NCBI GenBank assembly: GCA_963765145.1
Contig: CAVXVG010000018.1
Coordinates: 32,001 to 96,000 of the forward strand
DNA from: Parachlamydiales bacterium
GTDB lineage: Bacteria > Chlamydiota > Chlamydiia > Chlamydiales > JAJFMK01
Length of the DNA stretch: 64,000 nucleotides
Reading direction: 5' to 3'
Shown here: in pieces, positions 28,007 to 29,768 of the stretch
How the letters are laid out: each line of letters starts with the position of its first letter
Position numbering within the stretch: position 1 is the stretch's first letter
Program-made: the position numbers and the translations under genes
Notes under the pieces: model-generated
The model's database searches: none
What the model saw: only the letters and a program-made list of their open reading frames with translations
What the model was told of the DNA's origin: nothing

Positions 28007-28086
28007 CGCGAAGCGTTTGGAGTGCTCAAACTCCTGTTTAGCTTTCACTTATCAATGAAAATGAAAGCTAAACAGGAGTTTAGCAC
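28007..28086. repeat. Family A palindrome copy A5, left part (interrupted by the IS; remainder at 29698-29712)
   Basis: ...aaagctaaacaggagtttagcAC, then the IS, then ACtccaaacgcgttgcg; rejoining restores a standard family A copy. Confidence 0.92.
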
Positions 28087-28225
28087 ATACTGTAATTGCG
28101 CTTCAGAGCTTAGCCGGTAAGAAAATGGGCTGTTCTAGGAGGGTTTTAAAAACCCCACGGAGTAGTACTAGACTCTCCAGGCTTTGGCTTGGTAGCCTAA
28201 GCAAGCAATACAGGAGAACAGCCCA

Positions 28226-29326
28226 ATGAAACATTATATCGGTTTAGACGTATCTTTGAAAACTACTGCCATCTGCATCATGGCTCAAGATGGTAAGATC
28301 ATCCGAGAGATGACAGCCGCTACTGACCCTTTAGCTATCGCAACTGCGATCAAGACGACCAAGCTCACTATTGAAGCTATAGCAATTGAAGCTGGTGGAA
28401 CAAGCCGATGGCTTGTTCAAGAACTTCAAGAGCTTGACCTTCCAGCGATATGTATCGACTCTCGCAAAATGGCTGCCGCCATCGCAATCAAAGCCAATAA
28501 AACAGACAAAAACGATGCGAGGGAAATCGCAAACGCCCTTCGGACTGGCTACTTTCAAGAGGTCTATCAAAAAAACGATACAAATATGAGCATCAAAAGT
28601 CTCTTAAACATCCGACGCAATCTGGTGATACAAAGAACCATGACGAGTAACTGTATCCGCGGTACTTTGAGATGTTGTGGAAAGCTTTTTTTAGGGTCTA
28701 GTAGTAGTCAAAAGAACTTCATAGAGAAGGTAACAGAGTCGATACAAGATCAACCTGAAGAGGTCGCAATGGGCATTCGTGCACTTTTAGTAACCTTTTC
28801 TCAACTTCACAAACTAGTAGATGAAATAGACAAGAAGATCGAAGACATAGGAAAGAATGACGAAGTCGTTCAGCTGCTAATGACAGTTCCTGGTGTAGGG
28901 ATCGTAACTGCAGTGAGCTATAAGGTTGAAATTGGAGACCCAAAAAGATTCACACGATCGAGGTCAGTTGGAGCATATGTTGGGATGACTCCAAGGCAGT
29001 ATAGTTCAGGTGAAACCGAGCATCAGGGGAAAATAACAAAGATTGGATCAAATGAACTCAGAGCGCTGCTATCTGATGCCGCCATGAGCATGATGTATCG
29101 ATGCAAAACATGGAGTAGAGCCAAAGTTTTTGGGCTAAAGATCAATAAGAAGCATGGGCATAAAAAAGCTATAGTTGCCCTTGGTCGGAAGCTTGGTGTG
29201 ATAATGCATCGAATGTGGACAGAAGGTAAACCATTTGAAGCTGGTGAAGTCGAGAAAAAAGAAATTGATAAAGTAACCAAGCCAAGTCGGAAAGAGAAGA
29301 AAAAATCAAAGCAGATGGCTGCTTAA
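28226..29326 (+). CDS. IS110-family DEDD recombinase/transposase
   Basis: YIGLDVS, AIEAGG and KTDKNDA (DEDD); LLMTVPGVG, GMTPRQYSSG (catalytic Ser) and KKAIVALGRKL. SD AGGAG. Confidence 0.95.
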   Translation: MKHYIGLDVSLKTTAICIMAQDGKIIREMTAATDPLAIATAIKTTKLTIEAIAIEAGGTSRWLVQELQELDLPAICIDSRKMAAAIAIKANKTDKNDAREIANALRTGYFQEVYQKNDTNMSIKSLLNIRRNLVIQRTMTSNCIRGTLRCCGKLFLGSSSSQKNFIEKVTESIQDQPEEVAMGIRALLVTFSQLHKLVDEIDKKIEDIGKNDEVVQLLMTVPGVGIVTAVSYKVEIGDPKRFTRSRSVGAYVGMTPRQYSSGETEHQGKITKIGSNELRALLSDAAMSMMYRCKTWSRAKVFGLKINKKHGHKKAIVALGRKLGVIMHRMWTEGKPFEAGEVEKKEIDKVTKPSRKEKKKSKQMAA

Positions 29327-29394
29327 GAAAAGTTAAAAAAGTTCTCAAAGAGCGAAAGAGCAGAGAGAGTAAGAAAAAAGATTCAAATACGAGT

Positions 29395-29562
29395 TCGAAA
29401 TAAGGTTAAGACGCTTTGGAGTTGACGCTAATAAGACGTCGTGTAGCACATTGTCTTACCTTGTTTCTTTTGGAAAGTATGTTGGGGCTGAAGATCAGCT
29501 AATAAGGCCGAAATCTTCAATAAAAAGGACCCCGGAGAGAACTATGACCGAGTTAGAATTTT
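29395..29562 (+). ncRNA. Predicted bridge RNA / seekRNA of the IS (target-binding and donor-binding loops)
   Basis: Two stem-loops with internal loops. TTTGGAGT (29415-29422) and TAGCAC (29444-29449) match the target; AGTATGTT (29476-29483) and AGAGAAC (29536-29542) match the IS end junction. RNA ends are approximate. Confidence 0.8.
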
Positions 29563-29612
29563 ATTTTTTACGATCAAGCTTTGGAAGCCCATAGAGGAAG
29601 TTGTCAATTATC

Positions 29613-29632
29613 TTGGGGGAAGTATCCCCCAA
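29613..29632. other. Perfect hairpin in the IS right end
   Basis: ttggggga-agta-tcccccaa, followed by accccc. Confidence 0.6.
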
Positions 29633-29768
29633 ACCCCCTCGGCTTAGGAAGGGGAAAGAGAAAAAATCATGCTTGCCTAGAAACGCAATTAGAGAACTCC
29701 AAACGCGTTGCGAACTAAAAAGGGTTGTTTACGCCGGTTAGTTATGCAACAGGGACGCTCCGCGTTAT

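Follow-up and report, generated by a model that had tools for sequence, protein, structure and literature searches.

An IS1111-group insertion sequence with a predicted four-guide bridge RNA in the palindromic repeats of a Parachlamydiales genome

Described relatives and the chlamydial element

Among the closest known counterparts of the locus treated here are insertion sequences (IS) of the IS1111 group, for which an RNA downstream of the recombinase gene, a particular order of guides, natural reprogramming and, in ISPa11, the targeting of repetitive extragenic palindromic (REP) sequences have been reported (PMC11187229). The locus itself is an insertion sequence at positions 28085-29697 of a 64,000-nucleotide (nt) stretch from a Parachlamydiales bacterium (contig CAVXVG010000018.1, positions 32,001 to 96,000, forward strand), the whole of which is called the window below. 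Bridge RNAs have been predicted in 93% of IS1111 elements, and IS621 has been found in REPs (PMC11208160). Furthermore, GT cores are functional (PMC11208158), two IS110 elements can occupy one REP (PMC12288879), five IS families, IS5 included, are associated with REPs (PMC1525189), and handshake guides of the IS621 type have been described (PMC13626964; bioRxiv 2025.05.14.653916).

The window element is a clear further example of this known kind of RNA-guided recombinase and not a new kind. Comparison of homologous loci shows that the flanks or ends of an element are tracked by its own two target guides and by the varying portion of donor guide 1. Guide 1 complements the top strand and guide 2 the bottom strand, which is the IS1111 order, and this order together with the sub-terminal inverted repeats fits the group as described (PMC11187229). 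Membership in the IS1111 group is indicated by every trait compared except the length of the terminal extensions; the protein tree used below covers the homologs found here. For IS1111, terminal extensions are described as 7 (or 6) bp and 3 bp (PMC11187229). The window element has 6 nt on the left and 4 nt on the right besides the 2-nt core, slightly more than this, a difference that depends on how the core is counted.

ISPa11 of Pseudomonas aeruginosa, an IS1111-group element with a seekRNA (PMC11187229), resembles the window element in its DEDD recombinase, downstream RNA, sub-terminal inverted repeats and a top-strand match that precedes the bottom-strand one. It is also inserted in REPs (6/6 copies; PMC1525189), but host group, repeat and guides are different. 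ISEc11 and ISKpn4 (IS1111 group; PMC11187229) share the layout, a junction promoter (a predicted one in the window element), the guide order and natural reprogramming among relatives. However, they target a short linear site and attC, and an RNA of about 82 nt is their main form, where the window element has a covarying second, donor-matching hairpin besides. Their extensions are 7/3 or 6/3; the window element has 6 and 4 nt and a single AC core, which would place 12 bp between its repeats once circular. The bridge recombinases IS621 and ISCro4/IS622 (PMC11208160; PMC11208158; PMC13626964; bioRxiv 2025.05.14.653916) have in common with the window element four guides in two loops, handshake dinucleotides (putative ones in the window element) and a DEDD plus serine active site, and the two nucleotides after the core in each second guide of the window RNA fit the IS621 handshake guides. 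IS621 likewise targets REPs, with the same geometry on the other strand; because it is read on that strand, the AC core of the window element corresponds to GT in the IS621 convention and keeps the near-invariant T. In contrast, IS621 has an upstream RNA, short sub-terminal inverted repeats and a CT core, whereas the window element has a downstream RNA, long repeats and a GT core, and protein similarity to the window recombinase is weak (E 4e-14 and 1e-13). In Pseudomonas putida KT2440, ISPpu9 and ISPpu10 (PMC12288879) place two IS110-family elements in one REP, as do the window element and a second element on contig C25 of the host genome; unlike the window element, they belong to the IS110 group and are without long sub-terminal inverted repeats.

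Supplementary tables aside, which may list the clade, no publication on a chlamydial bridge system was found, and the string 'Chlamyd' is absent from the main text of PMC11208160. The chlamydial host, proposed in a preliminary description drawn from the window sequence, is consistent with an Hc1 match above the cut-off in the host genome (E 5e-19; also present in 1 of 14 control genomes) and with a Chlam_OMP6 match below the cut-off (0 of 14 control genomes).

The element, its guides and their covariation

The features of the element and its RNA are as follows.

28007-28084, no strand: left part of the interrupted extragenic palindromic repeat, the left half ending TTTAGC
28085-29697, + strand: complete insertion sequence assigned to the IS1111 group, 1,613 base pairs (bp) with both AC core copies; five full host-genome copies with identical ends
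28085-28086, + strand: left AC core (GT on the other strand)
28087-28092, + strand: left terminal extension ATACTG, predicted target of donor guide 1 and of the target-loop handshake, and source of the -10 box in the circle
28093-28104, + strand: left sub-terminal inverted repeat, 8 bp perfect, 11/12 matching
28226-29326, + strand: IS110-family DEDD recombinase, 366 amino acids (Pfam domains; catalytic residues aligned with IS621)
29391-29554, + strand: predicted bridge/seek RNA, with the limits of the covariance-model match (model R1, 102.9 bits, the window RNA being in the training set)
29415-29422, + strand: target guide 1, TTTGGAGT, complement of the core and 6 nt of right target; covaries at +1 to +6
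29443-29449, + strand: target guide 2, at most 5 nt of left target and the core, with 4 matches and a mismatch at -5 (29443); TAGCAC at 29444-29449
29450-29451, + strand: putative target-loop handshake dinucleotide AT, the first 2 nt of the left end
29476-29480, + strand: donor guide 1, complementary to the left end over its first 5 nt; covaries at +3 to +5
29536-29542, + strand: donor guide 2, AGAGAAC, the last 5 nt of the right end and the core
29543-29544, + strand: putative donor-loop handshake dinucleotide TA, 1 of 2 equal to the first target bases right of the core
29673-29678, + strand: -35-like hexamer TTGCCT, 18 nt before the -10-like CATACT that circularisation would form
29680-29691, + strand: right sub-terminal inverted repeat
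29692-29697, + strand: right terminal extension GAGA and right AC core (29696-29697)
29698-29712, no strand: right part of the interrupted repeat, TCCAAA and a small terminal hairpin

The guide evidence comes from loci collected in genomes and metagenomes, of which 99 have an RNA segment, 67 are distinct and 65 were counted; L008, which carries an inserted IS, and L026, which has lost its target loop, were dropped. Apart from L122 and L133, loci below 39% identity were excluded, and so was any locus lacking the right-end motif; four rows with GG at the guide 1 core, which may be one column off, were retained. The RNA alignment covers 59 of the 67 segments and the protein tree 64 of the 65 loci. 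Loci and ends were found by motifs that include the AC core and a right-end heptamer, and target flanks played no part in the selection.

Target guide 1 matched the right flank at +1 to +6 in 51/57, 49/57, 47/56, 48/56, 44/55 and 35/53 loci (permutation means 13-21), and target guide 2 matched the left flank at -1 to -5 in 54/54, 52/53, 48/53, 37/52 and 35/52 (permutation means 14-21). Among the 65 RNAs there was no flank signal for guide 1 at +7 or +8 or for guide 2 at -6 to -8. Donor guide 1 followed the left end at +3 to +5 in 52/54, 48/54 and 39/54 loci (permutation means 28, 19 and 27), positions +1 and +2 being near-invariant. None of 5,000 permutations equalled any of these counts for the target guides or donor guide 1. 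The core reads AC in guide 2 of all 65 RNAs and GT in guide 1 of 61. Donor guide 2 matched the right end in 58/58 loci, with one compensatory case (L053).

Since related elements are not independent, 22 disjoint nearest pairs on the protein tree were also used. At the 119 positions where sister guides differ, guides matched their own flanks in 191/238 comparisons and the swapped flanks in 21/238, and the 45 elements with both flanks have 40 distinct predicted targets. Handshake pairing is suggested by the same RNAs. The target-loop dinucleotide is AT in 62/65 RNAs with one compensatory case (L100), and the donor-loop dinucleotide agrees with the right target flank in 34/57 and 24/57 loci, compared with permutation means of 22.3 and 12.8 that were reached by 0 and 2 of 5,000 permutations. 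In sister pairs the donor-loop dinucleotide matched its own flank 5 times and the swapped flank 3 times of 12 at the first position, and 13 versus 3 times of 28 at the second.

The structure of the RNA, as judged from aligned homologs, rests on these rather than on the window sequence alone. A single-sequence fold yields both hairpins, the first with a stem at 29402-29412/29453-29462 and one bulged T, but by itself it is weak (168 nt, z = -1.53), 12 of 200 shuffles doing equally well; the whole 3' region folds with z = -2.80. The consensus fold has three helices and leaves all four guides unpaired. Two-sided changes occur in 13 of its 17 pairs, values that none of 500 shuffles attained, and 96.4% of alignment cells pair, compared with 32-46% when partners are slid. 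Rfam has no family at the RNA, and its seven weak matches, all below the gathering score, were rejected as a DNA palindrome resembling microRNA hairpins. Free-standing copies were not found either, the five host-genome matches of model R1 all lying within elements (150 of 696 candidates scored).

Much of the preliminary description agrees with these results. Every segment that it named, namely the AC core, the stem, TTTGGAGT, TAGCAC, AGTATGTT (29476-29483) and AGAGAAC, lies where it was placed, and the tie between guides and target that it proposed is found in both target guides and in the sister pairs. For the donor side its proposal stands on three variable positions for guide 1 and one compensatory case for guide 2. 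It had read AGTATGTT as an 8-nt donor guide; the letters are in place, but the conserved guide is 5 nt long (29476-29480) and the longer match partly coincidental, because only 7 of 65 RNAs have GT as the core-facing bases. A hidden match of these bases to the left target flank was considered and rejected, four of four comparisons being at chance level. The cap GCTAATAAG that it gave to both hairpins is present at 29427 and 29498, its only + strand occurrences in the window, and was rejected as a family motif, not being kept in the homolog alignment.

The host genome (G000) comprises 2.68 Mb in 37 contigs and is 84.8% complete. Its five full copies of the element are 99.9-100% identical, one differing by a single substitution, and share their ends. 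In 5/5 copies AC flanks both sides, the site and orientation are the same and there is no true target duplication; the outer flanks of all five are GGAGTTTAGC and TCCAAACGC. The exact split of the repeat at the core was thus described correctly, and none of the copies lies in the unrelated sequence that would have spoken against it. The start of the element is likewise as first given, but its end is 29697 and not 29712, since the repeat's right half occupies 29698-29712. The element is intact and also recently mobile, as its near-identical copies indicate. In run X1 a 180-nt contig links its right end to a flank that agrees, in 30/30 letters shown, with that of the repeat copy at C29:242053-242064, which is intact in the host genome; this suggests a different insertion in a close strain, hence insertion polymorphism, but at a depth of 2 it is only a hint. 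At a sixth locus (C21:174136-174171) a 36-bp right-end remnant, preceded by sequence like the interior of an IS5 miniature, is followed by the right target half; it is probably a sixth copy lost through deletion.

The sub-terminal inverted repeats are set 6 nt inward of the left core and 4 nt inward of the right one, and perfect repeats of 7-14 bp occur in all 51 elements with both ends found. The recombinase gene is preceded by 141 bp of non-coding DNA and followed by 371 bp. When the ends are joined, a -35-like hexamer comes to lie 16-19 nt ahead of a CATNNT-like -10 box. A hexamer beginning with TTG is found at that spacing in 27 of 51 elements, compared with 1-6 of 51 at nine control offsets, and is a perfect TTGACA in 11 of them; such comparisons support a predicted promoter at the putative circle junction.

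The recombinase matches PF01548 (DEDD_Tnp_IS110; 62.9 bits, cut-off 29) and PF02371 (Transposase_20; 85.2 bits, cut-off 21.3), which, with the downstream RNA, the sub-terminal repeats and the guide order, agrees with the IS110-family, IS1111-type assignment made earlier. Residues D8, E55, D94, D97 and S261 are invariant or near-invariant among 62 aligned sequences and pair with D11, E60, D102, D105 and S241 of IS621 in an alignment to PDB 8wt6, whose N-terminal pairwise part is weak alone; the IS621 residues are those listed in PMC11208158. The element is patchily distributed, because 27 of 401 genomes of the order, the host included, match the recombinase at E <= 1e-60 but none of the three other genomes of the host's own family does. 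Of 8,000 scored proteins 2,823 pass 1e-60, the closest other protein being 68% identical, and a search of genome contigs with the single protein gave only five distant relatives (26-32% identity). Among the 15 best plasmid matches listed, the only named IS family is ISMno22 (Methylobacterium nodulans plasmid NC_011887.1), with 40% identity across 93% of the protein. Genome G053 holds 34 family matches, many of them broken (L008, L022, L026, L029, L031, L033, L034 and L036); its elements use another target, TAT[AC]TCGTTT, and one copy is without the target loop.

The host repeat and its other users

The target repeat is repetitive, extragenic and palindromic. Its intact 12-mer occurs 178 times in the host genome, compared with 0.37 expected from base composition, and only six of the 178 lie inside open reading frames (ORFs) of at least 150 amino acids, though such ORFs make up 77% of the genome. 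The target is therefore the genome's own palindromic repeat, as had been proposed. The 9-nt right half was absent within 1.2 kb of all six Y1_Tnp matches (exact motif, genome 84.8% complete). The label 'REP-like' is safest, since no RAYT-type Y1 neighbour was found with this exact motif in an incomplete genome.

Two other kinds of mobile element use the same arm of the repeat. A second IS110-family element, present in single copy (C25:31093-32619; loci L035 and L176), lies in the opposite orientation. It encodes a protein of 362 amino acids, 27% identical to the window recombinase, and has 12-bp sub-terminal repeats and a 3' RNA with matching guides. Its core is AG/CT, one base from the AC core; the same GT/AC core was considered for it and rejected, as homologs show AG/CT. 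Five homologs have both a right end and a first guide that can be read, and in these the guide tracks the flank for 3-5 nt past AG. The other user is an IS5-family transposon (PF13737, three matches: C2:1-1115, C29:69607-70720 and C25 at about 33071), whose terminal repeats we take to be IS903-like, together with about 35 shorter derivatives of 100-1,650 bp with common terminal repeats. A perfect 9-bp duplication is present in 23 of 38 paired IS5-family elements and in 19 it is the repeat's GTTTAGCAC or its complement. Moreover, GTTTAGCAC flanks 66 of 105 IS5-family ends, and the duplication stops at the AC core.

Among relatives of the window element, three more read ACTCCAAA, including L047 (G192) and L080. 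L001, L043, L042 and L080 form one clade (support 0.95), with L047 placed elsewhere in the tree. The left guide in G200 is TCGC, which is found in 8/8 retrieved repeats (of 18 pattern matches), and the sole insertion seen there sits at a near-cognate site. The G192 guide is AGTC, and L047 sits in that genome's own such repeat variant. The matching repeats of G192 and G200 also set ACTCCAAA beside a small hairpin. The patterns used on relatives miss the host repeat by spacing, so that their zero in the host is meaningless. L043 (G200; 57% identity) was the only locus with two RNA matches in the 100 sources searched, having tandem bridge-like RNAs at 1360-1529 and 1844-2014, the first of which fits the G200 repeat and the second of which has an altered target loop and scores 54.8 bits.

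We suggest, tentatively and with more doubt than conviction, that the repeat arm could be a structurally special landing pad shared by two RNA-guided IS110 types and a protein-guided IS5-family transposon, three unrelated elements that in one genome cut within the same 10 bp, and that the IS1111 lineage may re-tune one guide to the variable hairpin arm of each chlamydial repeat (TAGC, TCGC, AGTC) while the ACTCCAAA half stays fixed. If this were true, the landing pad would be a natural record of guide-repeat co-evolution, the IS1111 RNA would act as a full four-guide, handshake-bearing bridge, and site choice would also need DNA shape or a host factor.

Proposed cycle, alternatives and setting

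An RNA-guided cycle of the IS1111 group is very likely. The element would excise as a circle, and its ends, joined at the AC core, would create a promoter for the recombinase gene and the downstream RNA. The first loop of this RNA would pair with both target strands, over about 6 nt to the right and 4-5 nt to the left of the core, while the joined ends would be paired, again on both strands, with the second loop. The RNA-loaded DEDD/serine recombinase could then exchange strands at the core, with the two handshake dinucleotides favouring insertion. As the guides match a conserved spot of the extragenic palindromic repeat, the element would have about 180 exact, mostly intergenic landing sites. 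The anatomy, the site specificity and the covariation of guides with flanks and of the RNA structure are observed, and the expression of the RNA, the circle, the chemistry and the direction would be as in the IS621 and ISEc11 work.

Several observations weigh against this cycle. No read or contig spanning the circle junction was found in public run contigs, and one RNA run (of 13 listed) has a single 206-nt contig at 28150-28353 and none over the RNA, although assembled contigs cannot demonstrate expression. The run X1 contig described above has a depth of 2. One of the five copies (C29:48880-50493) is frameshifted by a 1-bp insertion near codon 210, with its RNA intact. The core-facing bases of donor guide 1 are mostly not GT, the invariance of donor guide 2 and the end AC is partly circular as both served as search motifs, the handshake signal is weaker in sister pairs than over all rows, and some homologs' sites fit their own guides poorly (e.g. 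L058, L053 and L110).

Of the other explanations, it is highly improbable that site choice rests with the protein alone and the guide-like matches are relics or coincidence: the matches are only 5-8 nt long and the single-sequence fold is not significant, but the confinement of covariation to particular positions and the sister-pair test largely refute it. It is unlikely, though less remote, that a short processed target-loop RNA suffices and the protein reads the ends via the sub-terminal inverted repeats, hairpin 2 being part of a precursor or an accessory. For ISEc11 an 82-nt RNA was sufficient and better than a 154-nt form (PMC11187229), and the window element has long sub-terminal inverted repeats, a donor guide 2 that barely varies and a donor guide 1 without a conserved core-facing part. 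This explanation does not account for the tracking of the left end by donor guide 1, the compensatory changes in L053 and L100, the agreement of the donor-loop handshake with the target flank or the covarying stem of hairpin 2, which point to selection on donor pairing in at least one step.

Somewhat more plausible, yet still doubtful, is a need for the DNA structure of the repeat or a bound host protein besides RNA pairing, with the arm as an opened, accessible spot. The three unrelated elements that share the arm (the window element, the second IS110 element and the IS5 family with its miniatures), the 9-bp duplication common to half of the paired IS5-family elements and the small hairpin adjoining ACTCCAAA in G192 and G200 would all fit. 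However, most homologs' targets are diverse and predicted by their guides, and selection favouring multi-copy sites where insertion is harmless accounts for the convergence with no appeal to structure. Such a requirement would in any case add to RNA guidance and not replace it, and it is compatible with the RNA-guided cycle.

The element offers an IS1111-type system that is fully mapped in sequence, with target, donor, core, handshake and promoter, in a lineage that shares only about 40% identity with the nearest named family among the 15 plasmid matches listed and has about 40 naturally reprogrammed relatives. As such, whether IS1111 RNAs act as a bridge (donor loop needed) or a seekRNA (target loop only) becomes directly testable. 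A candidate with a GT/AC core is also added to the recombinase toolbox; in ortholog screens in human cells most candidates showed little activity, with 18 of 72 detectable and one above the luciferase limit (bioRxiv 2025.05.14.653916). For environmental chlamydiae, the findings suggest that mobile DNA accumulates in harmless intergenic repeats.

The element lies between convergent genes, neither of which is broken: a 794-amino-acid autotransporter (25566-27950, + strand) and a 382-amino-acid protein kinase (29769-30917, - strand). Further along the window, a 590-amino-acid ORF (32887-34659, - strand) has a long, low-complexity C-terminal repeat region rich in R, D, G and P and built of 24-nt units; its N-terminal part, judged by eye, presumably resembles an rRNA pseudouridine synthase.

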